Below, piece after piece: positions 4,209 to 44,682 of a stretch of 52,691 nt of DNA; the stretch's first letter is position 1; each line of letters begins with the position of its first letter. The stretch is from an uncultured Gammaproteobacteria bacterium. Its GTDB lineage: Bacteria > Patescibacteriota > Patescibacteriia > UBA2196. The position numbers and the translations under genes are program-made. The notes below the pieces were generated by a model, which searched no databases, had not been told where the DNA came from, and was given only the letters and a program-made list of their open reading frames with translations. Where the stretch lies: assembly GCA_964522515.1 (NCBI GenBank), contig CAZFWC010000003.1:1-52691 (forward strand), written 5' to 3'.

Positions 4209-4210
4209 TT

Positions 4211-4258
4211 GTCATCCCGAGCGACTCTTAGAGTTGTTAGAAGCGATGGGATCCCGTG
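4211..4258 (-). repeat. Family-4 ~48-nt element (CGGGATCCCATC..CTAACAAC..AGTCGCTCGGGATGAC), inverted copy
   Basis: GTCATCCCGAGCGACTCTTAGAGTTGTTAGAAGCGATGGGATCCCGT. It starts 3 nt after the stop of ORF 3729-4208. Confidence 0.85.
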
Positions 4259-4270
4259 GAAAAAGAGAAT

Positions 4271-4303
4271 AAGATTTATGATTTAAGATTTAAGATTTAT
4301 GAA
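4271..4303. repeat. Heptamer microsatellite (A[AT]GATTT)n
   Basis: AAGATTTATGATTTAAGATTTAAGATTTATGAA, intergenic. Confidence 0.8.
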
Positions 4304-4334
4304 TATTTTTTTAAAATTTTTTTAAAATAAAAAA

Positions 4335-4425
4335 TAGCACGCAGATAAACACAGACTAAAGCGCAGATAAACGCTGATAAAAAAATCTGCGAAAATCAGT
4401 TTAATCTGCGTTAATCTGTGTTCTA
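4335..4425. repeat. Family-5 long imperfect palindrome with ~10-11-nt phased words
   Basis: TAGCACGCAGATAAACACAGACTAAAGCGCAGATAAACGCTGATAAAAAAATCTGCGAAAATCAGTTTAATCTGCGTTAATCTGTGTTCTA. The arms are AGCACGCAGATAAACACAG / CTGCGTTAATCTGTGTTCT. Confidence 0.8.
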
Positions 4426-4440
4426 TTAAAAAATTTTTTA

Positions 4441-4482
4441 AAAATAAAATAAAAAGGTGGGCTGAATAATCAACTCACCTTT
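4441..4482 (-). terminator. intrinsic terminator after gene 4501-4845
   Basis: Minus strand reads AAAGGTGAG-loop-CCCACCTTT followed by TTATTTTATTTT. Confidence 0.6.
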
Positions 4483-4500
4483 AAGTGGATGTGAAAAAAA

Positions 4501-4845
4501 TTAAACATAAAGTCCTGCTTTTCGTGCAATTTCTTTATCTTCAACTGCAGGCCAAATTGCAACATTATTTGATAAAGAATTTTTCCAAACATCTGTTGCT
4601 TTTCTAAACATTACTCTGATTTTTTTCTGCTCGCGTAATTTTTTGTATTCCTGATGTAACTTATCATTTTTAGTTACATTTGTTGCAAAATAGTATTTTA
4701 CGCCTTTAATTGTTTGAGGTTTGGGCCAACTGTATTTACCGCATTTTGGACATCCTTCTTCAGTGCCGTTGTCCCAACATTCTACACAAAGATCATTCCA
4801 ATAATTATCATAATATTCATCTTCTTCATAATGTTCATTTTCCAT
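4501..4845 (-). CDS. hypothetical protein with CxxC-x9-CxxC zinc-knuckle
   Basis: 114 aa. CVECWDNGTEEGCPKCGK motif followed by a basic C-terminal half. AAGGAG RBS 6 nt upstream, TTGACA-17-TACACT promoter, and a downstream terminator. Confidence 0.7.
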   Translation of the reverse strand: MENEHYEEDEYYDNYWNDLCVECWDNGTEEGCPKCGKYSWPKPQTIKGVKYYFATNVTKNDKLHQEYKKLREQKKIRVMFRKATDVWKNSLSNNVAIWPAVEDKEIARKAGLYV

Positions 4846-4902
4846 TATTTGTCTCCTTAATTTGATTAATGTAAAAGTAAAAGATTTTTTTGTAATTATT
4901 TT

Positions 4903-4931
4903 AGTGTATCAAATTAAATTATTTTTGTCAA
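4903..4931 (-). promoter_or_regulatory. candidate promoter for gene 4501-4845
   Basis: Minus strand reads TTGACA-17 nt-TACACT. An AAGGAG RBS follows. Confidence 0.55.
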
Positions 4932-4992
4932 GCTCAAAACTGTGGAAAACTTTAAAAAATAAATTATTTTACCTAAAATTAGCCAAATATTT

Positions 4993-8099: not shown

Positions 8100-8186
8100 T
8101 TGAAAAAATAATTTAAAAGTGATTTTGTAAAAGAGTTTGAAGTTTGGGAGGATTAAAGAATAAGAAAATAAGCATTTTTCAAAAGT

Positions 8187-8219
8187 TGGCTCCATTCCTG
8201 AGCACTTGGGATGGAACCA
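8187..8219 (+). repeat. Family-3 hairpin (GGCTCCA..GGATGGA[AG]CC), variant
   Basis: TTGGCTCCATTCCTGAGCACTTGGGATGGAACCA followed by a T-run, upstream of the alaS promoter. Confidence 0.7.
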
Positions 8220-8261: not shown

Positions 8262-10085
8262 ATGACCTCGCAAGAATTAAGACGAAAATACATAGATTTT
8301 TTTGTAAAAAAAGGGCACACTGAAATTCCTTCTGCTTCTTTGGTTCCTGAAAATGATCCTTCAACTTTATTTATTTCAGCAGGAATGCAACCAATTGCTT
8401 CTTTTTTAATGGGTGAAAAACATCCATCTGGAAATAAATTAGTTAATTCTCAAAAATGTATTCGCACTGATGATATTGACGAAGTTGGTGATAAATTTCA
8501 CCACACTTTTTTTGAAATGCTTGGGCACTGGTCGCTCGGAGATTATTGGAAAAAACAAGCAATAAAAATGAGCTGGGAGTTTTCAACACAAGAGTTGGGT
8601 TTAGATAAAAATAAATTAGCAGTAACGGTTTTTGAAGGAAATGTGAATGCTTCTAAAGATGAAGAATCAATTCAAGTTTGGAAAAGTTTAGGTTTTCCAG
8701 AGCAGAGAATTATTAAATTAAATAAAAAAGAAAATTGGTGGGAGCCAGCAGGTGAAAGTGGTCCGTGTGGTCCAGACACAGAAATGTTTTATTGGACAGA
8801 TAATAAAAATCCTGCGCCAGAAAAGTTTAATCCAGAAGATTCTCGCTGGTTTGAAATCGGAAATGATGTGCTGATGCAATATAATAAAATTGCTAAAAAT
8901 AAATATATTCCAGCTAAACAGAAAAATATTGATAATGGTACAGGTTTTGAAAGGGTTGTAGCTGTTACGAATAATTTAGATGATAATTATTTAACTGATT
9001 TGTTTTTGCCTATTATTAAAAAAATTGAAGAGTTAAGTGAAAAAAATTACAAAAATGTTTCTGAAGAAATTAAAAAAAGTATAAGAATAATTGCAGATCA
9101 TTTAAGAGCAGCGACTTTTATTTTAGCAGACAACACAAAAATTATTCCGTCAAACACAGATCAAGGATATGTTATTAGAAAATTAATTCGCAGAGCAATT
9201 CGGCACGGACGAATGATTGGAATTAAAGAAAATTTTACGCGCAAAATCGCAGAAGTTGTAATTAATTTAATGTCAGAAATTTATCCAGAATTAGAAAAAA
9301 ACAAAAAATTTGTTTTAGATAATTTTGAATTAGAAGAAGAAAAATTTACAAAAACTTTGCAACAGGGGTTAAAAAAATTTCAGAAATTAGAAATCAGAAA
9401 TCAGAAATTAGGACAGAAAAAAATTAGCGGCGCAGAAGTATTTGATTTATTTCAAACTTACGGTTTTCCAATTGAATTAACAAAAGAACTAGCAAGTGAA
9501 AAAGGTTTAGAAGTTGATGAAAAAGGTTTTGAAAAAGAAATGAAAAAACATCAAGAACTTTCTAGAACCGCGACAGCTGGAAAATTTAAAGGTGGTTTAG
9601 CAAATCAATCTGAACAAACAATTAAATATCACACAACAGCGCATTTAATGTTGGCTGCTTTGCGAAAAGTTTTAAATGAAAATATTCAACAAAAAGGTTC
9701 AAATATAAATGAGGAAAGATTGCGATTTGATTTTTCTTATTCTGAAAAAATGACAGATGAACAAAAAGCAGAAGTTGAAAATTTAGTTAATAATTGGATT
9801 AAACAAGATTTAAAAATTATTTGTGAAGAAATGAGTTTGGACGAAGCTAAAAAACAAGGAGCAACCGGAGCTTTTGAAAATAAATACGGAGAAAAAGTTA
9901 AAGTTTTTACAATTGGCTCCTCCTTCGCTAAAGCTACGGCGGACAGGGAAAATAATAATATTGTTAGTAAAGAAATTTGCGGAGGTCCGCACATTAAACG
10001 CACAGGAAATTTAGGAAAATTTAAAATTAAAAAAGAACAATCAAGTTCTGCTGGGATTAGGAGAATTAAAGCAGTTTTGGAATAA
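8262..10085 (+). CDS. alaS: alanine--tRNA ligase, short form lacking the C-terminal C-Ala/DHHA1 region
   Basis: 607 aa. The N-terminal class II catalytic core (FFVKKGHTEIPSASLVP, FHHTFFEMLGHWS) and the editing domain (HTTAHLM, ICGGPH) are present. The ORF ends shortly after the editing domain. Contains repeat insertions at 9381-9413 and 9919-9947. Confidence 0.9.
   Translation: MTSQELRRKYIDFFVKKGHTEIPSASLVPENDPSTLFISAGMQPIASFLMGEKHPSGNKLVNSQKCIRTDDIDEVGDKFHHTFFEMLGHWSLGDYWKKQAIKMSWEFSTQELGLDKNKLAVTVFEGNVNASKDEESIQVWKSLGFPEQRIIKLNKKENWWEPAGESGPCGPDTEMFYWTDNKNPAPEKFNPEDSRWFEIGNDVLMQYNKIAKNKYIPAKQKNIDNGTGFERVVAVTNNLDDNYLTDLFLPIIKKIEELSEKNYKNVSEEIKKSIRIIADHLRAATFILADNTKIIPSNTDQGYVIRKLIRRAIRHGRMIGIKENFTRKIAEVVINLMSEIYPELEKNKKFVLDNFELEEEKFTKTLQQGLKKFQKLEIRNQKLGQKKISGAEVFDLFQTYGFPIELTKELASEKGLEVDEKGFEKEMKKHQELSRTATAGKFKGGLANQSEQTIKYHTTAHLMLAALRKVLNENIQQKGSNINEERLRFDFSYSEKMTDEQKAEVENLVNNWIKQDLKIICEEMSLDEAKKQGATGAFENKYGEKVKVFTIGSSFAKATADRENNNIVSKEICGGPHIKRTGNLGKFKIKKEQSSSAGIRRIKAVLE
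9381..9413. repeat. Heptamer array ([CT]AGAAAT)x4 inside the alaS CDS
   Basis: CAGAAATTAGAAATCAGAAATCAGAAATTAGGA, translated as KLEIRNQKLG. Confidence 0.8.
9919..9947 (+). repeat. Family-1 fragment inside the alaS CDS
   Basis: CCTCCTTCGCTAAAGCTACGGCGGACAGG is identical to 41425-41453. It is translated as SSFAKATADR within the editing-domain region. Confidence 0.9.
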
Positions 10086-12237: not shown

Positions 12238-12281
12238 ATCCGCCGTAGCAATTAAAGGATTGCCAGGGAGCGAAGGCGGGC
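12238..12281 (+). repeat. Family-1 GC-rich arm (CCGCCGTAG...GCGAAGGCGGG) upstream of rpmJ
   Basis: TATCCGCCGTAGCAATTAAAGGATTGCCAGGGAGCGAAGGCGGG. This is the near-exact reverse complement of the left arm of copies 13479-13668 and 43416-43584. Confidence 0.85.
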
Positions 12282-12411: not shown

Positions 12412-12506
12412 CCGCCTTCGCCTCTAAAAAACTCTACTGGACTACGGCGGGCGAGTTCCTAGTTCTTTTTAAATAAAATTTTAAATTAAAATTTTATTTA
12501 AAAAGC
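12412..12506 (+). repeat. Family-1 complementary arm plus AT hairpin downstream of rpmJ
   Basis: CCCGCCTTCGCCTCTAAAAAACTCTACTGGACTACGGCGGG, then the perfect AT palindrome CTTTTTAAATAAAATTTT / AAAATTTTATTTAAAAAG. Confidence 0.85.
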
Positions 12507-13478: not shown

Positions 13479-13668
13479 ATCGCTTACCCTCCTTCGCTCC
13501 CTAGCAACTCTTTAATTGCTACGGCGCCTGTCCGCCGTAGCTTTAGCGAAGGAGGAGGCAAGCTCCTGTGTTTTTTAAATTTTAAACACAAGAGTTCCTG
13601 CCTGTCGGCAGACAGGTATCCGCCGTAGTCCAGTAGTCCCGAGTACTCGGGATTAGGGGCGAAGACGG
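13479..13668 (+). repeat. Family-1 composite GC-rich palindromic spacer element, copy A (rpsK-rpsD)
   Basis: Modules in order: CCTCCTTCGC..GCTACGGCG/CCGCCGTAGC..AGCGAAGGAGG, the CTCCTGTGTT-loop-AACACAAGAG hairpin, CCTGCCTGTCGGCAGACAGG, CCGCCGTAGTCCAGTAG, CCCGAGTACTCGGG, GCGAAGACGG. Confidence 0.9.
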
Positions 13669-13678
13669 AAAAATTATT

Positions 13679-14311: not shown

Positions 14312-14451
14312 TCGCCTAACCCTCCTTCGCTTCAACTCTAAAAAAATTCTAGCTACGGCGGACAGGCTTCTAGTTCTAAATTTAAAAGCATTAAAATTTT
14401 ATCCACCGTAGTCCAGTAGAGTTGTTTAAGGGCGAAGGCGGATAAACAAAT
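14312..14451 (+). repeat. Family-1 composite spacer element, copy B (rpsD-rpoA)
   Basis: TCGCCTAACCCTCCTTCGC...GCTACGGCGGACAGG...CCACCGTAGTCCAGTAG...GGGCGAAGGCGGATAAACAAAT. Confidence 0.9.
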
Positions 14452-14458
14452 AAATTTT

Positions 14459-15247
14459 ATGAATATAATTCCCACTGCTCAAAAAAAAGAATTTATTTTT
14501 TCTGAAACGCCTAACAAAGGCAAATTTATTATTGAACCGCTTTTCCCTGGTTTTGGTTTAACAATTGGAAACGCTTTAAGAAGAGTTTTGCTTTCTTCAC
14601 TTGATGGAGTTGCAATTACTTCAATTAGAATAAAAGGCGCTGACCACGAATTTACAACAATTGACGGAATTAAAGAAGACTTGGTAGATATTATTTTAAA
14701 TTTAAAACAAATTAGATTTGATGTAACTGGAAATTTTGAAGAACCAATTAAAATGCAATTAAAAGTTAAAGGCGCGAAAGAAATTAAGGCAAAAGATTTT
14801 AAAAAAACCGCTGGAGTAAAAGTTGCTAATCCAGATTTAATTATTGCTCAAGCAACTGATTCTAAAGCAGAATTTGAATTAGAAGCTTGGATTGAAAAGG
14901 GCAGAGGTTATTTGCCAACTGAAATGATGGAACACAAAGAAAAAGAAATTGGTGTAATTACAATTGATGCATTTTTTTCACCAATTAAAAGAGTTGCAAT
15001 TGATACTGAAAATGTTCGTGTTGGCGAAATGACAAATTGGGATAAATTAATTTTAAATTTAGAAACTGATAGCACCATTTCTTGTGAGGATGCTTTAAAT
15101 AAAGCTACTCAAATTTTAGTTGAGCAATTTCAGTTTTTGTTAGAGAATAAAATAGAAAGTTCAGAAAAATTAGAAAAAGAAAAAGAAGACTTAGTGGAAG
15201 AAAAGCCAAAGAAAAAAGCTAAATCAAAAAAAGAAGAAATCGCCTAA
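14459..15247 (+). CDS. rpoA: DNA-directed RNA polymerase alpha subunit, N-terminal domain only
   Basis: 262 aa. Alpha-NTD motifs present (FIIEPLFPGFGLTIGNALRRVLLSSL). The C-terminus is a K/E-rich tail. No HhH alpha-CTD sequence is visible. Confidence 0.88.
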   Translation: MNIIPTAQKKEFIFSETPNKGKFIIEPLFPGFGLTIGNALRRVLLSSLDGVAITSIRIKGADHEFTTIDGIKEDLVDIILNLKQIRFDVTGNFEEPIKMQLKVKGAKEIKAKDFKKTAGVKVANPDLIIAQATDSKAEFELEAWIEKGRGYLPTEMMEHKEKEIGVITIDAFFSPIKRVAIDTENVRVGEMTNWDKLILNLETDSTISCEDALNKATQILVEQFQFLLENKIESSEKLEKEKEDLVEEKPKKKAKSKKEEIA

Positions 15248-15401
15248 TCCTCCTACACCTTCAATCCTAAAAAAATTCTAGCTACGGCGGGCAAGCTCCT
15301 GTGTTTTTTAAATTTTAAATACAAGAGTTCCTGCCTGTCGGCAGACAGGTATCCGCCGTAGTCCAGTAGGATTTTTTAAGGGCGAAGGCGGATAAACAAA
15401 T
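15239..15401 (+). repeat. Family-1 composite spacer element, copy C (rpoA-rplQ)
   Basis: ATCGCCTAA (which contains the rpoA stop), TCCTCCTACACCTTC, GCTACGGCGG, central hairpin, CCTGCCTGTCGGCAGACAGG, CCGCCGTAGTCCAGTAG, GGGCGAAGGCGGATAAACAAAT, then the rplQ ATG. Confidence 0.9.
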
Positions 15402-16692: not shown

Positions 16693-17936
16693 ATTTCCTC
16701 TTTAACAATTTTTCTATCATCCCAATCAATCATTTTTCCATTTGCTAAACACATTTTTTGTTCAGCGCCTTTGCCAGTAAGTAAAATTAAATCATTAGGT
16801 TTTGCAAGTAGCAGAGCTTTTTGAATTGCTTCTCTTCTATCTAATATTTTATATAATTTATTTTCTGGAACTTTAGATGCAACTTGATTAATAATTTCTT
16901 GTGGATTTTCATCGTACGGATCTTCGTTGGTTACAATTACAGTGTTTGCATTTTCTGATGTTAATTTTCCAAGAATTTGTCTGCGAGATTTGTCGCGTCC
17001 TCCACCAGCTGATCCTAAAATATGAATTATTTTATTGTGTTCCACATTTTTTACTGTTTCATATAATTTTTCAATTGCTTTTGGTTCAAAAGCGTAATCA
17101 ATTAAAATTTTAATTTTTAAATCATTTTTAATAAATTCTAATCTGCCGGGTAAAGGTTTTAAATTTTCAACTGCTGATTTGACAGGGTAAATTTTATCTT
17201 CTGCAACTTTTAAAACTTTAGCCACAGCAACACCAGCTAAAATATTATATTTATTATAATCACCGAGTAAATTAATTTTTAAATTATTTAATTTAACATC
17301 TGCATTTGAATTTATTCCGTAAGTTATTTTTTTGTCTGCCCAAAAATTTAAAAAATATTCTGCGTGTTCGTCATCTAAATTTGCAATTATTGTTTTTTTT
17401 ATTTCTAATTTCTTTTTTTTGCATTTAGATAAATATTTAAATAATTTGCCTTTTGTAGTTTTATAATTTTCAAAACTGCCGTGTGATTCAATGTGCTCTG
17501 GATAAAGATTTGTAAAAACTAAAATATCATAATTAATTCCCAAATGTCTGAACTGTTTTATTCCTTCTGAACTTGTTTCAATAATTGCGACTTCACATTT
17601 ATTTTTAACCATTTGTTTTAATAATTTTTGCAAACCAAATCTTCCAAGCATTGTCATTTTTTTATTATTTAACCATTCTTTTTTATTTATTTTAAATAAA
17701 GTAGTTGTGCTCATTCCAACTTTAAAACCTGCTTTTTCTAAAATTTGCGCAATAAAATAGCACGAAGAAGATTTTCCAGTTGTGCCGGTTACTCCAATTA
17801 CAATCATTTTGTTTGATGGATAATTATAAACTAAAGCGCTAATTTTAGCCAAGATCCAATGATAAATTGGCTGTAATTTTTCAAACAGTTTTTTTGGAAT
17901 TATTTTTTTAATTAAATTTAGGAGTTTGTTTATCAT
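16677..17936 (-). CDS. Mur ligase family protein (MurE-like, no N-terminal domain)
   Basis: GVTGTTGKSSS P-loop, ETSSEG, and Mur ligase middle and C-terminal domains. Start moved to the ATG at 17936, which has a GGGGAGAG SD-like upstream. Upstream codons run into the repeat at 17941-18052. Confidence 0.8.
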   Translation of the reverse strand: MINKLLNLIKKIIPKKLFEKLQPIYHWILAKISALVYNYPSNKMIVIGVTGTTGKSSSCYFIAQILEKAGFKVGMSTTTLFKINKKEWLNNKKMTMLGRFGLQKLLKQMVKNKCEVAIIETSSEGIKQFRHLGINYDILVFTNLYPEHIESHGSFENYKTTKGKLFKYLSKCKKKKLEIKKTIIANLDDEHAEYFLNFWADKKITYGINSNADVKLNNLKINLLGDYNKYNILAGVAVAKVLKVAEDKIYPVKSAVENLKPLPGRLEFIKNDLKIKILIDYAFEPKAIEKLYETVKNVEHNKIIHILGSAGGGRDKSRRQILGKLTSENANTVIVTNEDPYDENPQEIINQVASKVPENKLYKILDRREAIQKALLLAKPNDLILLTGKGAEQKMCLANGKMIDWDDRKIVKEEIKKLA

Positions 17937-17940
17937 TTTA

Positions 17941-18052
17941 GAGTCTCTCCCCATTTTCAAGGGGGAGATTAAGAGGGGGTTAATAATTTTAATTAAATAA
18001 TTTATTAACCACCCCCAACCCCTCCTTCAAAAGGAGGGGAGGATATTTTTTT
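17941..18052 (-). repeat. Family-2 triple-hairpin GC-rich element, copy 1
   Basis: GAGTCTCTCCCCATTTTCAAGGGGGAGATTAAGAGGGGGTTAATAATTTTAATTAAATAATTTATTAACCACCCCCAACCCCTCCTTCAAAAGGAGGGGAGG. It spans the junction between the Mur ligase gene and the upstream membrane-protein gene. Confidence 0.9.
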
Positions 18053-20165: not shown

Positions 20166-20753
20166 CTATTTTTTCTTTCCTAAATTTTTTAAAGCGGACT
20201 TAATTATTTCATCTTCATTTTCAATTTCATTTGGAACTTGGCGCAAAGAGTCGCGAATTTCTTGAGGCAAATAACCCAAACTTTGCAAAGCCTCAAAAGC
20301 GCCAGCTTGACCATCAGACGCTAAATCAACTTTTTCATCTTTTCCAACAGGCAAGTTATCTAATTTATTTTTCAACTCAACCACAATTCTTTCTGCTGTT
20401 TTAGTTCCAATTCCAGAAACTTTTTTTAACAAACTTGGGTCGTCTCGCAAAATTGCTTTTTTAATTTCTGATAATTTTGCAATTGATAAAGTTTGTAAAG
20501 CTGATTTTGGCCCAACACCAGAAATTGAAATTAGTAATTCAAAAAATCTTTTTTCATTTTGTGTTTCAAAACCGTAAAGATTTAAAGCATCTTCTCTAAC
20601 ATAAGTGTGAATAAAAAATTCTTTTTCTTTATTGATTTTAAGTTTTTCTAAAATTGGTTCAGTTGTAAAAATTTCAAATCCAATATTGTTCACAATTAAA
20701 GTTAGTGATTTAGTGTTTTTAAATTTAATTGCGCCAGATAAATAAGAAATCAT
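20166..20753 (-). CDS. ruvA: Holliday junction DNA helicase RuvA
   Basis: 195 aa. OB N-terminus (MISYLSGAI) and two HhH motifs (ISGVGPKSA, VSGIGTKTAERIV). Confidence 0.9.
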   Translation of the reverse strand: MISYLSGAIKFKNTKSLTLIVNNIGFEIFTTEPILEKLKINKEKEFFIHTYVREDALNLYGFETQNEKRFFELLISISGVGPKSALQTLSIAKLSEIKKAILRDDPSLLKKVSGIGTKTAERIVVELKNKLDNLPVGKDEKVDLASDGQAGAFEALQSLGYLPQEIRDSLRQVPNEIENEDEIIKSALKNLGKKK

Positions 20754-20761
20754 ATTTTTAA

Positions 20762-20927
20762 TTCTCCCCTCCTTTTCAAGGAGAGTTTTATTATTAGGAC
20801 TTTTTAGAGTCTCTCCCCATTTTCAAGGGGGAGACTAAGAGGGGGTTAATAATTTTAATTAAATTATTTATTAACCACCCCCAGCCCCTCCCTGCCTACC
20901 GGACAGGCAGGCTTGAAAAGGAGGGGA
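20762..20927 (-). repeat. Family-2 element, copy 2, with nested palindromic module and an extra hairpin
   Basis: Same core as copy 1 with few substitutions. CCTGCCTACCGGACAGGCAGG is inserted in the loop of the last hairpin. An extra CTCCCCTCCTTTTCAAGGAGAG hairpin abuts the ruvA ATG. Confidence 0.9.
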
Positions 20928-21343: not shown

Positions 21344-21363
21344 GAAAGTGGTAGCAACAAACA

Positions 21364-21388
21364 GGCTCCACCCAAGAGGGATGGAGCC
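21364..21388 (+). repeat. Family-3 hairpin
   Basis: GGCTCCACCCAAGAGGGATGGAGCC followed by AAC, 32 nt before the ATG at 21420. Confidence 0.85.
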
Positions 21389-21419
21389 AACTAATAATTT
21401 AAAAGTGTAAGATAAAATT

Positions 21420-22012: not shown

Positions 22013-22726
22013 ATGCAAGAACGCCTACAAAAAATTTTATCAAGATTTGGTGTTGCTTCTCGCAGAAAAGCAGAAGAGCTTATTTTAAATAAAAAAGTTT
22101 TAGTAAATAATAAAATTGCAAAATTAGGTCAAAAAGTTGATTTAAAGAAAGATATTGTTGAAGTAAAACACAGAAGCCTGTCCGCCGAAGCTGGGAATTT
22201 TAGGGTTGAAGCGAAGGAGGAACAGGCGGTTTATTATTTAGTTAATAAACCTGTGAATTTTACTTGCTCTGTTTCTGATAAACACGCTAAAAAATTAATT
22301 ACTGATTTAGTCCCTAAAAATCCAAAAGTTTGGCCAGTTGGGAGATTGGATAAAAATTCAACGGGTTTAATAATTTTAACTAATGACGGAAATTTAACAA
22401 ATAAATTAACTCATCCAAAATTTAAACACGAAAAGGAATACGAAGTTGCGGTTGATAAAAAAATTTCTGAAAAATTTTTGCAGAAAATGAAAAAGGGAAT
22501 TAAATTAGATGAAGGAGTTGCTAAAGCTGATAAAATTATTGCGTTAAATAAAAATAAATTTATAATAATTTTACATCAAGGTTGGAAAAGACAAATCCGC
22601 AGAATGTGTGAGAAATTAAATTATAAAGTTTTGGAATTAAAAAGAACAAGAATTGGAAAAATAAAATTAAAAGATTTAAAAGAAGGCAAGTTTGAAGAAA
22701 TAAAAAAGCCACTGGATGTAAATTAG
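22013..22726 (+). CDS. RsuA/RluB-family pseudouridine synthase with S4 domain
   Basis: 237 aa. S4 domain (RLQKILSRFGVASRRKAEELI) and catalytic GRLDKNSTGLIILTNDG. Has an in-frame GC-rich insertion at 22177-22229. Confidence 0.88.
   Translation: MQERLQKILSRFGVASRRKAEELILNKKVLVNNKIAKLGQKVDLKKDIVEVKHRSLSAEAGNFRVEAKEEQAVYYLVNKPVNFTCSVSDKHAKKLITDLVPKNPKVWPVGRLDKNSTGLIILTNDGNLTNKLTHPKFKHEKEYEVAVDKKISEKFLQKMKKGIKLDEGVAKADKIIALNKNKFIIILHQGWKRQIRRMCEKLNYKVLELKRTRIGKIKLKDLKEGKFEEIKKPLDVN
22177..22229 (+). repeat. Family-1 fragment (inverted orientation) inside the pseudouridine synthase CDS
   Basis: CCTGTCCGCCGAAGCTGGGAATTTTAGGGTTGAAGCGAAGGAGGAACAGGCGG, translated as SLSAEAGNFRVEAKEEQA between the S4 and catalytic domains. 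Confidence 0.85.
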
Positions 22727-23933: not shown

Positions 23934-23979
23934 TTAGAAAAGAGAAAATTTAGAAAAGATAAAACTAAAAGAACAAAAT

Positions 23980-24004
23980 GACTCCACCCAAGAGGGATGG
24001 AGCC
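23980..24004 (+). repeat. Family-3 hairpin
   Basis: GACTCCACCCAAGAGGGATGGAGCC followed by AAC, 23 nt before the secD ATG at 24027. Confidence 0.85.
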
Positions 24005-24026
24005 AACATTAGAAATTTGCTTTTTT

Positions 24027-27834: not shown

Positions 27835-27868
27835 GTCATCCTGATTCCGAGTACTCGGGAGAAGGATC
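27835..27868 (-). repeat. Family-4/CCGAGTACTCGGG hybrid element
   Basis: GTCATCCTGATTCCGAGTACTCGGGAGAAGGATC, starting 2 nt after the stop of gene 26691-27833. Confidence 0.7.
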
Positions 27869-31174: not shown

Positions 31175-31192
31175 AAATTTCTAATTCATATG

Positions 31193-31225
31193 AGTTGGCT
31201 CCATCGCTCTCGCGTGGAGCCAACT
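31193..31225 (+). repeat. Family-3-related hairpin
   Basis: AGTTGGCTCCATCGCTCTCGCGTGGAGCCAACT. Confidence 0.7.
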
Positions 31226-31268
31226 TGTTAAGTCAACTAATAAAAATTTTTTACTGAAATAACAAATA

Positions 31269-31327
31269 GACTCCACCCCCCCAACCTGCCCGCCAGTGAT
31301 CTTTGGCAGGCGGGGAGGGATGGAGCC
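31269..31327 (+). repeat. Family-3 hairpin with nested GC-rich palindrome in its loop
   Basis: GACTCCACCCCCCCAACCTGCCCGCCAGTGATCTTTGGCAGGCGGGGAGGGATGGAGCC followed by AAC, 24 nt before the ruvX ATG. Confidence 0.85.
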
Positions 31328-31350
31328 AACAATCAGGTGGAGAAACTTAT

Positions 31351-34058: not shown

Positions 34059-34706
34059 TTAAATCTCTGTCCTTCCTTTAAACGCGTTAGCTAAAGTAAT
34101 TTCATCAGCGTATTCTAAATCAGCGCCTTGAGGAAGTCCGCGAGCAAGTTTACTGATTTTAATGTGAGGAAATTTTTTAAAAAGTTTTGTTAAATATAAA
34201 TTGGTTGTTTCGCCTTCAATTGTTGGATTTAAAGCTAAAATTATTTCTTTAATATTATTTTGGCTTGCACGCCGTAGCCCTGTCTTGCCGACAGGCAGGC
34301 TTGGCGTAGGAGGGTTGATTCTATTTTCTAAATTTTTAATATTTAATTTATCAGGAGTTACTCCTTCAATTGAATTTAAAACGCCATTTAAAATATGGTA
34401 AACTCCATTAAATTCTTTAGATTTTTCAAGCGGAACAACATCTGAACTTTCAGCAACAACACAAATTATTGTGTGGTCTCGTTGTGAATTAGAACAAATT
34501 GAACACAAATCATTTTCAGAAATTTGTCCGCATTGTGAACAATTTTTAATATTATCTTTAATATGCAATAAAGTGTTTGCAAAATCTGACAAAGTTTTTT
34601 TGTCTTTTTTAAGTAAATAAAAAACTAACCGTTCGGCAGTTTTTTGACCAATGTTGGGTAAAGAAGAAAAATGTTGAATTAAATTTTCTATTGATGTTGG
34701 TAGCAT
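34059..34706 (-). CDS. recR: recombination protein RecR
   Basis: 215 aa. HhH (LPNIGQKTAERLVFYLL), C4 zinc finger (CSQCGQISENDLCSICS) and Toprim domain. Has a ~16-aa GC-rich insertion (PPTPSLPVGKTGLRRAS). Confidence 0.9.
   Translation of the reverse strand: MLPTSIENLIQHFSSLPNIGQKTAERLVFYLLKKDKKTLSDFANTLLHIKDNIKNCSQCGQISENDLCSICSNSQRDHTIICVVAESSDVVPLEKSKEFNGVYHILNGVLNSIEGVTPDKLNIKNLENRINPPTPSLPVGKTGLRRASQNNIKEIILALNPTIEGETTNLYLTKLFKKFPHIKISKLARGLPQGADLEYADEITLANAFKGRTEI
34268..34315 (-). repeat. Family-1 fragment inside the recR CDS
   Basis: On the gene strand: CCCTCCTACGCCAAGCCTGCCTGTCGGCAAGACAGGGCTACGGCGTGC, translated as PPTPSLPVGKTGLRRA. Confidence 0.85.
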
Positions 34707-35070: not shown

Positions 35071-36468
35071 TTAATTTGTTGTGTTTTCTTGAGTTAATTT
35101 TTTTTCTAAATTTTTAAATGTTACTTTATTTTCATCCCAAAAAAGTGACACAACGCCAGTTGGTCCATTTCTGTGTTTAGCAATAAAAATATCTGTTTCA
35201 TCTCCGCGCGGACTGTCTTTTTTATAATATTTATCGCGATAAATAAACATCACAACATCAGCGTCTTGTTCAATTGATCCAGATTCGCGAAGGTCAGCTA
35301 ATTTTGGAATTGGTGTTGGCCGTGATTCAACTTGTCGTGAAAGTTGTGATAAAGCTAAAAAAGGAACATTTAATTCACGCGCGATTGCTTTTAAACCACG
35401 AGAGATTTCTGAAACAATTTGCACTCGGTTGTCTGAAGCGCTTGGGCTTTCCATTAATTGCAAATAATCAAGAACAATTAATCCAATATTGTATTCAGCT
35501 TGTAACCGTCTGGCCTTGGTTCTAATTTCCATTATATTTGCTGTTGGAGAATCGTCAATAAAAATTTGCGCTTCTGCCAATTCTCCCATTGCGTGTCCGA
35601 TTTTTGAAAAATCAGATTCACCTCCAGAGTCTTCTTTGTCAGATAATTTTCCTGTTCTCATTTTCCAAGAATCAATGTTTGCCTGCGCGCAAAGCATTTT
35701 ATCAACCATTTGTTCCTTGCTCATTTCTAATGAAAAAATTCCAACTGGGGTTTTTTGTTGAACAGCAACTTGTCGCGCAATATCTAATGCTAAAGTTGAT
35801 TTTCCCATTGAAGGTCGCGCAGCTAAAATAATTAAATCTGCTTTTTGCAAACCAGCTAGTTTATTATCTAAATGATAAAAACCAGTTGGCATTCCACGCA
35901 ATTTTCCTGAATCACGATGCAACTCATCAATTCTGTCAAAAGCAGAATTTAATAATTCTTTCATTGAACTGAATTTACTTTTTAAATATTTATGTGAAAC
36001 ACTAAACAATCTACTTTCCGCGCGGTCTAAAATTTTTTGCAAACCTTGTTCTTCATTGTATCCCATTTGCACAATTTCTGTTGCAGCTTTTATTAAATTA
36101 TTTAAAGTTGATTTTTTTTGAATTATTTTTGCGTAATGAAGAATATGTGAGGCAGTTGGAATACTGCTTGCTAAAGATGTTAAAAAACTTCTTCCACCAA
36201 TATTTTGCAGTTGTTTTTTTTCTTCTAATCTTGAACTTAAACTTAAAACATCAATTGGTTCTCGTTCAGAATACAAATCTAAAATTGCTTCATAAATTTT
36301 TCCGTGCGCGTCTTTATAAAAATCTTTTGGCGTTAAAATATCAGCAATTTTAATAATCGCTTCTTTATCAATTAAAAGAGCGCCTAAAACTGATTGTTCA
36401 GCTTCTAAATTTTGTGGAGGTATTCTAGTAGCAGGGTTTATTATTGTTGGAGATTTTTTATTACTCAT
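35071..36468 (-). CDS. dnaB: replicative DNA helicase DnaB
   Basis: 465 aa. PPQNLEAEQSVLGALL N-terminus, Walker A ARPSMGKST, and the RecA-like C-terminal domain (DLRESGSIEQDADVV). Confidence 0.93.
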   Translation of the reverse strand: MSNKKSPTIINPATRIPPQNLEAEQSVLGALLIDKEAIIKIADILTPKDFYKDAHGKIYEAILDLYSEREPIDVLSLSSRLEEKKQLQNIGGRSFLTSLASSIPTASHILHYAKIIQKKSTLNNLIKAATEIVQMGYNEEQGLQKILDRAESRLFSVSHKYLKSKFSSMKELLNSAFDRIDELHRDSGKLRGMPTGFYHLDNKLAGLQKADLIILAARPSMGKSTLALDIARQVAVQQKTPVGIFSLEMSKEQMVDKMLCAQANIDSWKMRTGKLSDKEDSGGESDFSKIGHAMGELAEAQIFIDDSPTANIMEIRTKARRLQAEYNIGLIVLDYLQLMESPSASDNRVQIVSEISRGLKAIARELNVPFLALSQLSRQVESRPTPIPKLADLRESGSIEQDADVVMFIYRDKYYKKDSPRGDETDIFIAKHRNGPTGVVSLFWDENKVTFKNLEKKLTQENTTN

Positions 36469-36627
36469 TTAAGTTTTCCGCCTTCGCCCATAATCCCGAG
36501 TACTCGGGACTACTGGACTACGGCGGATACCTGTCTGCCGACAGGCAGGAAATTTTAATGTTTTTAAATAAAAAATTTTAATCTAAAGATATTATTGTTA
36601 GAGTTTGAGCGAAGGAGGTTAGCGACT
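36469..36627 (-). repeat. Family-1 composite spacer element, copy E (upstream of dnaB, minus orientation)
   Basis: Read on the minus strand: AGTCGCTAACCTCCTTCGC...CCTGCCTGTCGGCAGACAGG..CCGCCGTAGTCCAGTAGTCCCGAGTACTCGGG..GGGCGAAGGCGGAAAACTTAA, then the dnaB ATG. Confidence 0.9.
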
Positions 36628-36701
36628 ATTTAATTTTAGCAAATATTAAAATATATTCAACCCATTTTTTTTACACATTCTATTAACTTTTAATGCACAT
36701 C

Positions 36702-36716: not shown

Positions 36717-38387
36717 ATGAAAGCATTTAAAGATAAATATTTTAGAATTTTAGTGATTTTAGCAATTATATTTTTTTGTGTTTATTCGTTTTTGCCAATT
36801 TCACAACTAATTTTTCAAAATCAAAATAATATTAAATCATCATTAAAATTTAACACACCAGATGAAGTAATTAATTATTATTTTACAACGCAGTATACAA
36901 AAACAAGCGAATTATACTATTTTGAGCCGTTAAATAATTTTGTTAATCGTGTAATTTTTCCGCGCTGGGCTTTTGTAAAAGATGGTAGAATTACGCCAGG
37001 AAATTTTTTAGGAATTGATTTAATTTACGGAAATTTAGCTAAAATTTTTTCTCCCGAGTACTCGGGATTAATTATTCCATTTTTAACTCCAATTTTTGCT
37101 GTGATTGGAATTTTGTTTTTTTATTTATTATTAAAATATTTTTTTGAAAAACGCGTGGCTTTTGTGTCTGCGTTGTTAGTTTTTATTTTTCCAGGATTTT
37201 GGTACTACGCGTCAAGGACAATGTTTCACAATATTTTATTTTTATCTTTATTAATAATTGGACTTTATTTTTTATTTAGATTATTTAAAACAAATAAAAA
37301 TAAATTATTTTTATCTTTTTTGTGTGGTTTATTTGTTGGTCTGGCTTTAATCACTCGCACTTCTGAAATTGTTTGGGTGTTTTTAATGGTTTTAATAATT
37401 TTGATATTTAATTTTAAAAAATTAAAAGATTTGTGGTTATATTTGTTGTTAAGTTTAGTAATTTTTAGTTTTTGTTTTGTTCCGGTTTTTTACCAGCACA
37501 AAATTTTATATAATAATTATTTTTCAACTGGTTACCCGATTCACACAGTAAGTTCAAATTTAGAATCAGGTCAAGTTAAATCAATAAATTATTTTCAAGC
37601 TTTAATTTTACCATTTGGATTTCATCCTCGCGTAATAATTACTCACACATTTTACAAATATATTTTAAATTTGTTTTGGCCTTGGATAATTTTGTGGTTA
37701 ATTGGATTAGCAGTATTTTTTAAAACAAAAAAAACAAAACAAGAAAAAAATTATTTTCCTTTGTTTTTTGTTCCTTGTTTTTTATTAATTTATTATGGTT
37801 CTTGGTTTTTTCGAGATTCAATTGATCCTAATTTAGTTAGTTTAGGCTCGTCTTATGTTAGATATTTTTTACCTTTATTTATTTTTAATATTCCAATTAT
37901 TGGGTTTTTGATTGTTAAAATATTTAATATAAAAAAATGGTCAAAAATAAATAAGTGTTTTTGTGTTTTTGTGTTTTTGTCTTTAAGCGTTTTTTCTTTT
38001 TATCAAGTTTATTTTGCTAATTCTGAATCTTTAATAAATATTAAAAATCAGCTAATTAAATATCAAATCCAAAATCAAAGTTTTTTGAAAAAAATTGATC
38101 AAGATGATATAATATATTTAAGCGCAGGAACTGATAAAATTTTATTTCCAGAATTTAAGCATTTAATCGTACAACAAAATAAAGTAGAATTTGTAGAAAT
38201 TAAAAAACTTTTGTTTTACAGAAATGTTTATTATTTTCATCACAATGAAAACACAAGTTTAAAAGAATTAAATAAAAATATTTTTAATCCAGAAAATTTA
38301 AAATTAGAAAATGAAGTTTTGATTAACGGGGGAGGGAAGCTTTTTCAAATTGTTCAAGACAAGCTTAAAACAAATGTTAAAAAATAA
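36717..38387 (+). CDS. GT-C fold membrane glycosyltransferase (ArnT/PMT, GT39-like)
   Basis: ~556 aa, more than 10 TM, with a DE-containing first loop (NTPDEV). The ATG at 36717 lies 6 nt after a perfect TGtTATAAT. Contains the 16-nt palindrome TCCCGAGTACTCGGGA in-frame. Confidence 0.6.
   Translation: MKAFKDKYFRILVILAIIFFCVYSFLPISQLIFQNQNNIKSSLKFNTPDEVINYYFTTQYTKTSELYYFEPLNNFVNRVIFPRWAFVKDGRITPGNFLGIDLIYGNLAKIFSPEYSGLIIPFLTPIFAVIGILFFYLLLKYFFEKRVAFVSALLVFIFPGFWYYASRTMFHNILFLSLLIIGLYFLFRLFKTNKNKLFLSFLCGLFVGLALITRTSEIVWVFLMVLIILIFNFKKLKDLWLYLLLSLVIFSFCFVPVFYQHKILYNNYFSTGYPIHTVSSNLESGQVKSINYFQALILPFGFHPRVIITHTFYKYILNLFWPWIILWLIGLAVFFKTKKTKQEKNYFPLFFVPCFLLIYYGSWFFRDSIDPNLVSLGSSYVRYFLPLFIFNIPIIGFLIVKIFNIKKWSKINKCFCVFVFLSLSVFSFYQVYFANSESLINIKNQLIKYQIQNQSFLKKIDQDDIIYLSAGTDKILFPEFKHLIVQQNKVEFVEIKKLLFYRNVYYFHHNENTSLKELNKNIFNPENLKLENEVLINGGGKLFQIVQDKLKTNVKK
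37052..37067 (+). repeat. Perfect 16-nt palindrome TCCCGAGTACTCGGGA inside the GT-C CDS
   Basis: Same module as at 13638-13653, 36494-36509 and 43543-43558. Translated as SPEYSG. Confidence 0.85.
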
Positions 38388-41152: not shown

Positions 41153-41194
41153 TTTTCAATTTTCAATTTTCAAACCTGTCTGCCGACAGGCAGG
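41151..41194 (+). repeat. Heptamer array (AATTTTC)x3 fused to an isolated CCTGTCTGCCGACAGGCAGG module
   Basis: Starts within the stop codon of pilin-like gene 39815-41152. Combines two repeat types seen elsewhere in the window. Confidence 0.8.
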
Positions 41195-41382: not shown

Positions 41383-42048
41383 ATGTCAAATCAAAAAAAT
41401 TCAGCGTTAAATCAGCGCACAAATCCTCCTTCGCTAAAGCTACGGCGGACAGGTCAGCGTCAGTCAGCGTCTAAGGGATTTACTTTAGTAGAATTAATGG
41501 TTGCGATTTCAATTTTTCTTTTAGCTACTTTTGTGGTAAGTGTTTTTATAATTCAAAATTTTCAAACTCAAAATTTTTCTTTAGAACAATCTTCTGCAAT
41601 TACTGAAGCGCGACGAGGAGTTGAAACTTTAGTTAAAGAACTGCGCGAAGCTTTGCCAGCAGACACTGGCGCTTATCCAATTGAATTTGCAAATGACCAA
41701 GAAATAATTTTTTACGCAGATTACGATCGCGACAACGCAATTGAAAAAGTTCATTATTGGTTAGATGAAAGTGATTTTAAAAAAAATGTGATTGAAGCAG
41801 GCGGAAGTCCACTTTCTTATTCTGGTGCAGGAGAAACAGAAATAATTTCTCGTTTTGTTAGAAATAATACAACAACAATTTTTACTTATTTTAACGGCGA
41901 TTACGCAACAAGCGCAACTCCTGCTGATCCAAATACCGTTAAACTAATTAATATTTATTTAAAAATTAATGTTAAACCACAACACGCGCCAACTGATTTT
42001 GAACTAGAATCTGATGTGAGTTTAAGGAATTTGAAAGAAAATCTATGA
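41383..42048 (+). CDS. minor pilin / pseudopilin with repeat-expanded leader peptide
   Basis: 221 aa. GFTLVELMVAISIFLL prepilin motif. The leader is 19 aa longer than in the paralogous upstream pilin because of a GC-rich insertion at 41408-41464. Confidence 0.8.
   Translation: MSNQKNSALNQRTNPPSLKLRRTGQRQSASKGFTLVELMVAISIFLLATFVVSVFIIQNFQTQNFSLEQSSAITEARRGVETLVKELREALPADTGAYPIEFANDQEIIFYADYDRDNAIEKVHYWLDESDFKKNVIEAGGSPLSYSGAGETEIISRFVRNNTTTIFTYFNGDYATSATPADPNTVKLINIYLKINVKPQHAPTDFELESDVSLRNLKENL
41408..41464 (+). repeat. 57-nt GC-rich in-frame insertion in the pilin leader
   Basis: Absent from the otherwise matching 5' end of paralog 39815. Contains the 29-nt core CCTCCTTCGCTAAAGCTACGGCGGACAGG. 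TCAGCG(T/C) is reiterated at both borders. Confidence 0.85.
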
Positions 42049-43415: not shown

Positions 43416-43584
43416 GTCGCAACCCTCCTTCGCTCTCTAACAACTTTTTAATTGCTACGGCGGGCAAGCTCCTGTGTTTTTTAAATTTTAAACACAAGAG
43501 TTCCTGCCTGTCGGCAGACAGGTATCCGCCGTAGTCCAGTAGTCCCGAGTACTCGGGACTAGGAACAAAGGCGGAAAACTCAAT
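43416..43584 (+). repeat. Family-1 composite spacer element, copy D (PilX-like gene to pilM)
   Basis: GTCGCAACCCTCCTTCGC..GCTACGGCGG..central hairpin..CCTGCCTGTCGGCAGACAGG..CCGCCGTAGTCCAGTAGTCCCGAGTACTCGGG..AAAGGCGGAAAACTCAAT, then the pilM ATG. Long stretches are near-identical to copy A. Confidence 0.9.
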
Positions 43585-44682
43585 ATGTTTTTTAGCACAC
43601 AAATTAAAACTTTTGGTTTGGATATTTCTGATCAATCCATAAAAATCGCGCAGATTCAAAAAATACGCGACAATTTGCAATTAACAAGTTTTAATAAAAC
43701 ATCGTTACCTCAAGGAATTTTAGTTAACGGTGAAATTCAAAATCAAGAACAATTAATTAAATATATTAAAAACACAATTAACCAAAGCAAAACTAAAATA
43801 GAAAATAATTATGTTGTGGCTTGTTTGCCAGAAGTTAAAACCTTTATTAAATTAATCAAAATAAAACTTGAAGATAAAAATTTGTCAGATAAATACTCAA
43901 TCAAAGAATTAATAAAAAAATGTTTACCAAAACATATTCCAATGCCAATTGAAGAAGTAGTTTTTGATTGGCAAATTATTAATAAAAAACAAAATTATAT
44001 TGAAGTTTTAATTGGTGTGGCTCCCAAAAACACAGTTTTAGCCTTTAATGATTTAATTAAAAAATGCGGATTAATGCCGATTTCTCTTGAAATTGAAGCT
44101 GGCTCAATAACTCGTTCTATTTTTACTTTGTCAAATAAAAAATTGCCAACAAAAATTGAAAATTCTTGCGACACTGTTTATTTTATTATTGATTGTGGCG
44201 CTTCTCGCTCAGGGTTAATTGTTTGGTCTGATCAAACAATTAAATTTACAACTAGTTTAAAAATTTGTGGTACAGAATTAACAAAAAAAATAAGTCAAGA
44301 TTTAAAACTTGATTTTAAAAAAGCTGAAAAATTAAAAAATATTTATGGACTTGAAATAAAAAACAATAAATCGAAAATTAAAAAAATTCTTAATCCATTA
44401 ATTACTGAATTAACAGATGAAATTACAAAAGCAAAAGAATTTTATGAAAATAATTTTGACAAAGATAAAAAGAAGTATGAAATTATTTTAAGCGGTGGTT
44501 CTTCAAATCTAAAAGCACTTGATACAGAATTAGCCCAAATATTAAATATGAAAGTTAGTTTAGCTAATCCTTTAATAAATTTAGCTTTAAAACAAAAAAT
44601 AAAAATAAACCAACAAGAAATTCAAAGCTACACAACAGCAATTGGTTTAGCTTTAAGATCTTTTTTTGTAAAAAATTATTAA
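43585..44682 (+). CDS. pilM: type IV pilus assembly protein PilM
   Basis: 365 aa. Actin-like ATPase fold signatures (FGLDISDQSIKIAQI; IIDCGASRSGL; ILSGGSSNLKALD). Confidence 0.85.
   Translation: MFFSTQIKTFGLDISDQSIKIAQIQKIRDNLQLTSFNKTSLPQGILVNGEIQNQEQLIKYIKNTINQSKTKIENNYVVACLPEVKTFIKLIKIKLEDKNLSDKYSIKELIKKCLPKHIPMPIEEVVFDWQIINKKQNYIEVLIGVAPKNTVLAFNDLIKKCGLMPISLEIEAGSITRSIFTLSNKKLPTKIENSCDTVYFIIDCGASRSGLIVWSDQTIKFTTSLKICGTELTKKISQDLKLDFKKAEKLKNIYGLEIKNNKSKIKKILNPLITELTDEITKAKEFYENNFDKDKKKYEIILSGGSSNLKALDTELAQILNMKVSLANPLINLALKQKIKINQQEIQSYTTAIGLALRSFFVKNY

Follow-up and report, generated by a model that had tools for sequence, protein, structure and literature searches.

GC-rich inverted-repeat cassettes upstream of dnaB and pilM in a Kuenenbacteria-related patescibacterium: probable copies of a recently expanded mobile element

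Why should one and the same GC-rich, non-coding sequence, always read in the sense of the gene that follows, stand directly 5' of dnaB, pilM, rpsD, rpoA and rplQ within a single stretch of DNA that is otherwise so AT-rich? The stretch in question (hereafter “the window”) comprises positions 1 to 52,691 of contig CAZFWC010000003.1 from assembly GCA_964522515.1, has a GC content of 28%, and belongs to a host that its DnaB homologues place near Candidatus Kuenenbacteria, within the Patescibacteria; the sequence is a cassette of 150–200 nt, whose arm GCGAAGGCGG lies 9–17 nt 5' of the ATG. A preliminary description of this DNA, made from the letters alone, had taken the uniform orientation as an argument against a selfish palindrome and, by implication, for a function. 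We hold it about 75% probable that the cassettes at dnaB and pilM are instead copies of a mobile, non-coding, GC-rich inverted-repeat element, similar in kind to REPINs or miniature transposable elements with inverted repeats (MITEs) and, where single units lie within genes, to Rickettsia palindromic elements (RPEs); they are best read as a new family of selfish repeats of a kind already known, not as a conserved regulatory element.

That the cassettes are copies of one another, as the preliminary description had it for dnaB, pilM and rpsD, is borne out by a 32-mer, CCGCCGTAGTCCAGTAGTCCCGAGTACTCGGG, which is present exactly three times in the window, at 13620 (+), 36495-36526 (-) and 43526 (+), i.e., before rpsD, dnaB and pilM, with none expected by chance (100 shuffles), and by the 106–125 nt that copies at different loci have in common at 84–94% identity. 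The six arms resembling a Shine–Dalgarno (SD) sequence that had been said to face a start codon at 9–17 nt indeed do so (rpmJ 10, rpsD 10, rpoA 17, rplQ 10, dnaB 9 and pilM 10 nt). The dnaB cassette is not an assembly artefact, since independent assemblies of the same strain (L001, L003 and L004) carry an identical 224-nt spacer. Searching the whole window against Rfam at the gathering threshold gave no matches, and a tRNA/tmRNA scan of it found none.

Orthologous sites in sister genomes

A comparison of the regions upstream of dnaB and pilM with those of sister genomes, suggested in the preliminary description as a check and here also covering rpsD, rpoA, rplQ, rpmJ and rpsM, found the cassette absent at all seven intergenic sites in the sister loci L020 and L092 (DnaB 89%, RpoA 78% identical; also 28% GC), L022 (DnaB 76%), L023 (DnaB 78%), L093 (PilM 68% identical) and L094 (RpoA 72%). 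At every site, conservation of the sister flanks runs as far as the stop codon on one side and resumes at the ATG on the other, so to say “around” the missing cassette (spacer lengths in Table 1). Upstream of dnaB, the sister has 91 nt with the same promoter-like block, in which 9 nt separate the -10 box from the ATG, an arrangement suggestive of a leaderless dnaB mRNA in the sister. The block itself, which holds TTGAAT-16-TAAAAT and two TGTGCA/TGTGTA motifs, is nearly identical between the two genomes (L020:9930-10003 versus window 36628-36700, minus strand), though the DnaB proteins differ by 11%. The rpoA gene of the window finishes with two codons encoded by the element and the element's own TAA.

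The same holds within genes. Compared with the sisters, the window has 51 additional in-frame nucleotides in recR (215 aa for RecR here, 200–204 aa there), 42 in alaS and about 30 in an RluA-like gene, and its prepilin leader is 32 aa long, 27 aa longer than the 5-aa MKNKG of the sister; none of these in-frame blocks is found in the sister recR, alaS, rluA and prepilin genes. Units defined by a regular expression number 14 in the 52.7-kb window versus 0–1 per sister locus of 12–21 kb (2.7 versus 0–0.8 per 10 kb), the few sister copies being short units within open reading frames (ORFs). Each insertion is lacking from several outgroups, and cassette copies of the one genome resemble each other more closely than orthologous genes do between genomes, so that insertion and expansion of recent date is the parsimonious reading: the cassette was not there ancestrally, and its family has expanded recently in this Kuenenbacteria-related lineage. 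Ancestral presence followed by loss in the sisters was rejected as unparsimonious, requiring precise, independent deletions at no fewer than nine sites, some of them in-frame, in several lineages. A 39-nt indel between L062 and L091, considered as a strain-level “empty/filled” pair, turned out to be unrelated coding sequence and not a unit.

Architecture of the element and orientation of its copies

The building block is one imperfect palindrome of 24–50 nt, CCGCCGTAG-loop-GCGAAGGNGG, which in the forward (F) reading is CCGCCGTAG-loop-GCGAAGG(A/C/T)GG and in the inverse (I) reading, its reverse complement, CCNCCTTCGC-loop-CTACGGCGG. Two such units, joined as an inverted dimer, make up a full cassette, with the GCGAAGGNGG arms and tails of about 10 nt as its outer ends; in gene sense, the upstream stop codon is followed by a tail of about 9 nt, (A/G)TCGCYTAAC, the I unit, an AT-rich hairpin B, optional further palindromes (hairpin C, CCTGCCTGTCGGCAGACAGG; a short unit of 24 nt; or, nested within a loop, TCCCGAGTACTCGGGA), the F unit, a tail of about 10 nt (consensus A(A/G/T)AAAC-AAT over 28 aligned start-side units) and the ATG. 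The outer arms, CC(T/G)CCTTCGC... and ...GCGAAGGNGG, are thus inverted copies of one unit, i.e., terminal inverted repeats, and it follows from this build that an SD-like arm points outward at both ends, toward the upstream stop as well as toward the downstream start. All 12 composites of an inverse and a forward unit defined by regular expression extend exactly from stop to start with their arms outward.

Each cassette is predicted to fold into successive hairpins, with a stability well beyond that of shuffled sequence (z = -5.4 to -6.3). The consensus F-unit stem, (U)CCGCC/GGCGG(A), is closed by a GUA/GAA internal loop, and is essentially invariant, without covariation and with a double change in just one of eight consensus pairs; a nearly invariant GTAG is internal to the unit, on the 3' side of the CCGCC stem arm, and belongs to that internal loop (GUA facing GAA). 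The two outer arms do not match one another (CCUCC versus GGCGG), whereas the pairing within each unit is perfect. An intrinsic terminator was considered and rejected, the sole terminator-like match being hairpin C on the antisense strand, with no gene-sense U-tract after the hairpins. Some of the inner palindromes are also seen on their own: hairpin C stands alone, in antisense, at 41175-41194, in the 230-nt spacer before the prepilin gene, and the 16-nt TCCCGAGTACTCGGGA occurs without a surrounding unit at 1425-1440, 1643-1658 and 37052-37067 (in ORFs) and at 27845-27860 (after a stop), and is apparently a mini-element in its own right, nesting in forward-unit loops.

How general, then, is the orientation? 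A census was taken of 81 non-redundant units in about 270 kb, comprising the window and the contig and metagenome loci fetched with an orientation-neutral 17-mer, CCGCCGTAGTCCAGTAG, which belongs to the GGCGG subtype. Among genome contigs, three of the 13 matches to the 17-mer were true AT-rich ones (L007, with a unit within an ORF; L011, with a unit in-frame in a tgt-like ORF; and L015, another patescibacterium, with the same layout of rplK stop, I unit, F unit and ATG), the remaining ten, from GC-rich genomes, being due to chance; from metagenomes came 31 further AT-rich loci, belonging to the same population or to related ones. Forward units precede the ATG of an ORF of at least 35 aa in 27 cases, before 27 different genes, at 9–17 nt (mode 10; 22 of the 27 at 10–12 nt), and at most two inverse units lie within 30 nt of a start (binomial p = 1.6e-6). 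Nineteen inverse units have their arm 1–10 nt from an upstream stop, which in five lies inside the element; 17 inverse and two forward units (three if the one in L011 is counted) are within long ORFs (p = 7e-4), and 16 units are cassette-internal or unclassified. In the window itself, opposite-orientation units directly follow stop codons at 12412, 13488, 14321 and 43424, and units lie inside ORFs at 9919, 22182, 34269 and 41425.

The regularity reported for the window's start codons therefore stands, and extends past it: the 23 17-mer matches from outside consist of 17 forward units 9–17 nt before an ATG, four inverse units in ORFs, one inverse at a stop and one other, with none inverse at a start. 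It is likewise correct that orientation is independent of the DNA strand, as it tracks the strand of the local gene; replication-strand bias was rejected as its cause, since the orientation flips with the local gene strand inside the window. The preliminary description had also named the pattern that would speak against it, namely roughly equal orientations together with many copies away from start codons, and of this the second half was found (two-thirds of the units are not beside a start, and 19 are in ORFs). What does not hold is the conclusion drawn from orientation. An inverted dimer faces its arm outward at both ends whichever way it is inserted, and in 19 units the arm abuts an upstream stop on the opposite strand; the rule would mostly stem from the geometry of the inverted repeat, because in a dimer that fills the spacer one of the outer arms always faces the downstream ATG, at roughly the length of a tail (10–12 nt), just as the other arm, on the other strand, faces the upstream stop.

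Geometry does not account for everything. About 85% of composites share one polarity, in that the stop end bears an A-type GGAGG unit and the start end a T-type GTAGTCCAGTAG/GGCGG unit with the AAAAAC-AAT tail, about 15% having the tails the other way round (e.g., L069 6680-6944), and the in-ORF bias is, for the 24-nt unit, not due to stop codons, because this unit has two open frames in either orientation, yet its in-ORF copies are inverse in seven of seven cases. Both the 85% polarity of the composites and the 17:2 in-ORF bias exceed geometry and fit selection at the level of translation; the residual, weaker start-side polarity, by which about 85% of start-side units are of the GTAGTCCAGTAG/GGCGG type with that tail, needs selection or a polar mechanism. 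Single units keep their arm outward beside the adjoining boundary, as expected of half-decayed composites, and such decay can be seen in the stop-side unit of the dnaB cassette, in which AT-rich sequence has replaced the CTACGGCGG arm.

Table 1. Copies of the element in the window, their parts and adjoining genes, with lengths of the corresponding spacers (all coordinates are those of the window)
Feature	Position	Strand	Spacer in sister(s)	Spacer in window	Basis or remark
dnaB cassette, ~156-nt insertion between promoter-like site and dnaB ATG	36469..36627	-	91 nt	+156 nt	clean gap with conserved flanks versus sister L020; repeat pairs
decayed stop-side (inverse) unit GTCGCTAACCTCCTTCGCTC of dnaB cassette	36601..36627	-			versus intact copies 43416-43463 and 14312-14361
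hairpin module C, CCTGCCTGTCGGCAGACAGG, dnaB cassette	36530..36549	-
forward unit CCGCCGTAG...GCGAAGGCGG, dnaB cassette	36478..36526	-			SD-like arm ends 9 nt before ATG
nested 16-nt palindrome TCCCGAGTACTCGGGA in dnaB forward unit	36494-36509	-
A-rich tail AAAACTTAA, part of element, dnaB cassette	36469..36477	-			alignment of 28 start-side units
promoter-like site TTGAAT-16-TAAAAT, 5' of dnaB cassette	36633..36660	-			conserved in sister, there 9 nt from ATG
dnaB	35071..36468	-			Pfam DnaB and DnaB_C (DnaB_C 4.6e-101)
pilM cassette (X/pilM junction), entire stop-to-start spacer	43416..43584	+	3 nt	169 nt	sister L093: TAA-ttt-ATG
inverse unit, pilM cassette	43424-43463	+
hairpin B, pilM cassette	43464-43502	+
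hairpin C, pilM cassette	43503-43522	+
forward unit, pilM cassette	43526-43574	+
tail, pilM cassette	43575-43584	+
pilM	43585-44682	+			PilM_2, 1.5e-45
rpsK/rpsD cassette, three units with hairpins B and C	13479..13678	+	10 and 6 nt	200 nt
rpsD/rpoA cassette, inverse unit and forward unit	14312..14458	+	30 and 17 nt	147 nt
rpoA/rplQ cassette	15239..15401	+	6 and 5 nt	154 nt	first 9 nt, ATCGCCTAA, are the last two codons and stop of rpoA
lone forward unit, 10 nt before rpmJ ATG (infA/rpmJ junction)	12240..12279	+	18 nt	59 nt
lone inverse-orientation unit just past rpmJ stop, 67 nt before rpsM (rpmJ/rpsM junction)	12412..12450	-	8 nt	112 nt
short unit, 42-nt in-frame insertion in alaS	9915..9956	-			inverse to gene; alignment with two sister alaS
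51-nt in-frame insertion in Toprim domain of recR	34269..34327	+			inverse to gene; sister comparison
in-frame insertion in RluA-like gene	22176..22229	+			rare in-ORF forward orientation
short in-frame unit in prepilin leader	41425..41448	-			sister comparison

Mobile element, regulatory RNA or domesticated module

The course of events behind the present arrangement can be shown in its first part and proposed in its second. Cassettes came to fill the short gap that parts a stop codon from the start following it or, at dnaB, the gap between promoter and start, and single units were inserted in-frame into genes. An insertion at a junction would part the start from the stop or promoter on which it depended; the upstream end carries a TAA or TGA that could be used as a stop codon, and the downstream GAAGGCGG motif together with the unstructured A-rich tail may rescue the initiation of genes that once relied on stop–start coupling or on a leaderless mRNA. 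Selection at the level of translation would then probably filter the insertions on top of geometry, with sense-strand SD-like copies (GAAGGAGG) being disfavoured in ORFs and purged.

The step of this scheme that concerns initiation is the most delicate one. The arm is at a spacing of 9–17 nt, mode 10, from the ATG (the SD criterion being 5–13 nt upstream), the cassette tail and the start codon stay open in the predicted ensembles, and no SD was found in or near the sister spacers of rpsD, rpoA, rplQ, pilM, rpmJ and dnaB, so that the arm with its A-rich tail might conceivably supply a new initiation region. The predicted duplex of the arm with an assumed canonical anti-SD (the 16S gene of the host lies outside the window) has -7.4 kcal/mol versus -11 to -12 for native sites, and a canonical AAGGAGG precedes just about eight of the window genes, initiation in this host appearing to be mostly SD-independent. 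Ribosome binding by the arm is, on these predictions, doubtful.

Several observations, indeed, tell against the mobile-element explanation as a whole or against that step. Among the start-side arms, 23 of 27 read GGCGG, not GGAGG (in part because the 17-mer used for ascertainment favours this subtype); in the predicted ensembles the motif is for the most part paired (probability of being unpaired 0.17–0.36, versus 0.4–0.8 in five of six native SDs); and about 35 of the 57 window genes have no recognisable SD within 25 nt of their start. No HUH/Y1 (RAYT-like) protein was found in 467 kb of related loci by a crude scan for HUH and Y..NP motifs; there is no transposase among the annotated ORFs of the window or sisters, with Pfam searches of unannotated window ORFs included; and none of four clean empty/filled pairs (dnaB, pilM, rpsD and rplQ) shows a target-site duplication, a possible TAAAT duplication at the dnaB pair being indistinguishable from chance in such AT-rich DNA. 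No parent insertion sequence (IS) with matching ends was found in the loci covered either. Furthermore, the cassette ends abut stop and start codons more tightly than selection alone would obviously predict, which leaves room for a targeting mechanism.

Might the insertion mechanism itself, then, set both orientation and placement, with a site- or strand-specific enzyme (of HUH/RAYT type acting on the GTAG hairpin, or a homing nuclease) targeting stop–start junctions or pre-start sequence and with little selection afterwards? We consider this doubtful. It would explain the 0–2 residual nucleotides between element ends and stop/start codons in most cases, the lack of target-site duplications (as with IS200/IS605 and REP-type elements) and the conserved GTAG adjoining the stem; spacers of 3–10 nt, however, make any tolerated insertion seem precise, copies in ORFs and in the middle of spacers show that insertion is not confined to junctions, the crude motif scan brought up no RAYT-like ORF, and orientation tracks the gene strand and not a fixed DNA strand. 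Also in its favour is a 93-aa GIY-YIG nuclease ORF (PF01541, 2.1e-11) between the arms of the cassette at L039:2767-3165 (also in L044), where the upstream stop is followed by an inverse unit, one half of hairpin B, the GIY-YIG ORF, a forward-type unit and the downstream ATG. This may represent an autonomous version of the element or else another selfish element nested in it, and is the only lead, not evidence; a second GIY-YIG ORF, 39% identical and located beside a tRNA gene at L084:5050-5600, has no flanking units and looks like an independent mobile nuclease insertion. It is accompanied by a duplicated 3' segment of the tRNA and a tandem ccataaaccataaagatttatgg array.

A mobile origin could also have been followed by exaptation, the cassette now serving as an intercistronic module whose stop-side hairpin protects the upstream 3' end and whose start-side hairpin protects the downstream 5' end after cleavage in the AU-rich middle, the arm and tail giving independent, tunable initiation and uncoupling genes that are coupled in relatives. 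Cassettes persisting in essential operons (ribosomal proteins, rpoA, dnaB), the prevailing polarity of composites, the junction downstream of rplK bearing a cassette with different internals in L015 and L053, the start-side GC-rich arms kept while other parts decay to AT (e.g., in the dnaB copy), and the known role of repetitive extragenic palindromic (REP) sequences as mRNA stabilisers (PMC3733652) all point that way. We nevertheless regard it as unlikely: the sisters manage without cassettes, the reversed composites run counter to a fixed polarity, and the SD-like motif is predicted to be sequestered. Very improbable, in turn, is a conserved cis-regulatory RNA, i.e., a translational operator or leader in which the anti-SD-like 5' arm CCUCCUUCGC pairs with the SD-like 3' arm and controls the downstream gene. 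The exceptional fold stability, a centroid fold of the pilM copy in which the two outer arms pair, the gene-sense orientation and the constant distance to the ATG speak for it, but its absence from all orthologous sister sites largely refutes it, and the mismatched outer arms next to perfectly self-pairing units, the stems without covariation, and the identical units within ORFs and after stops add to this; Rfam searches of the cassettes at E <= 1-5 assigned no family (best snoR18, E = 0.22, and cyano-S1, E = 1.5, far below threshold). A function-implying, non-selfish cassette, as the preliminary description had it, is thus unsupported beyond the residual polarity. One can also combine several of the above into a polar operon-junction element, partly domesticated and perhaps moved by some small nuclease, for which the GIY-YIG ORF is an example, that homes to stop–start junctions or start-proximal sites with its own stop codon and a hairpin-gated ribosome-binding site, and turns coupled or leaderless genes (ribosomal proteins, rpoA, dnaB, pilM) into independently initiated, structure-gated cistrons; this we see as quite unlikely.

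Known repeat families, other repeats and implications

If the cassettes are copies of a mobile element, as we prefer, the closest described kind is the GTAG-tagged REP/REPIN, which RAYT transposases mobilise, likewise consisting of short (20–40 bp in REPs), GC-rich, imperfect palindromes in many copies with a conserved GTAG, mostly present as inverted dimers able to fold into a larger hairpin, and located in transcribed spacers of co-directional genes near the 3' end of the upstream ORF. REPs also provide genes with stop codons and are found inserted within genes for tRNA synthetases, pseudouridine synthases and DNA repair (PMC3733652), both of which are seen here, the former sometimes and the latter in some of the insertions. 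The GTAG (or CGTC) tag of REPs is, however, defined as terminal (PMC3733652) and is unpaired at the end, whereas here it is internal, between stem and loop; REPs are at a variable distance from the downstream ORF, whereas the cassettes abut the downstream start at a fixed 10–12 nt; the motif scan found no RAYT gene; and the host is a patescibacterium with 28% GC, not a proteobacterium. MITEs such as the Correia elements of Neisseria and ERIC are similar in being non-coding, 140–265 nt long, bounded by terminal inverted repeats, high in copy number, present or absent between close relatives, and co-transcribed with flanking genes. MITEs, too, have orientation-dependent consequences. They differ in that the present element is modular, with small palindromes nested in it, and has neither target-site duplications at the four empty/filled pairs nor a detected parent IS with matching ends. 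As its GTAG is internal, no RAYT was found and target-site duplications are lacking, the element is filed in neither the REP/REPIN nor the MITE family.

The comparison with RPEs, reportedly described by Ogata et al. in 2000, rests in part on the REP paper cited above. Both are palindromic repeats of small AT-rich genomes that lie in-frame in essential protein genes as well as between genes, here adding 8–17 residues, a resemblance only, with no kinship in sequence to be expected, as the phyla are unrelated; the units here are shorter (24–50 nt) than RPE-1, have a strong orientation bias in ORFs (17:2), and also take a junction-filling composite form. Mobile GC clusters of yeast and fungal mitochondrial DNA are GC-rich palindromes that have spread in a very AT-rich genome, intergenically and sometimes in-frame; given another domain of life and another sequence, this is an analogy only. 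A partial literature search yielded papers on REPs and REPINs and nothing on such repeats in Patescibacteria, prior description not being excluded by it; what is unusual about the element is its tight abutment to start codons and its CPR (Candidate Phyla Radiation) host.

The window harbours further repeats. A different, 90-nt GC-rich one with GGGGAG/CTCCCC and ACCCCC/GGGGGT hairpins is found at 17936-18025 and 20802-20891 (97% identical), in spacers of minus-strand genes, one copy setting the canonical AAGGAGGGG inside a hairpin before ORF 20166-20753. Members of a third hairpin family, GGCTCCACCCAAGAGGGATGGAGCC, are at 8185-8218, 21356-21391, 23972-24007 (overlapping the ATG of ORF 23997), 31189-31229 and 31261-31343, and two more repeat pairs are 31711-31778/32889-32956 (direct, 90% identity) and 4210-4257/51271-51318 (inverted, 85% complementary). 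The cassette also leaves its mark on assemblies, which break at it: three same-strain contigs (L002, L005 and L006) start 43–145 nt before dnaB, and L076 (1-4206 versus 4207-6470), whose 99.8% match to the window does not begin until the rpsK/rpsD cassette, looks like a chimeric join at the repeat.

Patescibacteria are seen as bacteria with highly streamlined genomes, whose operons are densely packed and in many cases coupled. Against this background, a selfish repeat has widened seven operon or promoter junctions within 52 kb, from 3–30 nt to 59–200 nt, and AlaRS, RecR, a pseudouridine synthase and a prepilin have gained peptides from it, while it is almost missing from a sister whose DnaB is 89% identical. 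Through such repeats, CPR protein sets come to include spurious ORFs of small size and odd peptides of low complexity (PPSLKLRRTG, SSFAKATAD). Were the polar operon-junction alternative true, a mobile element would be rewiring translation initiation across a streamlined CPR genome; in any event, the paired empty and filled junctions constitute a natural “before/after” experiment on how initiation persists once stop–start coupling or a leaderless start has been destroyed.

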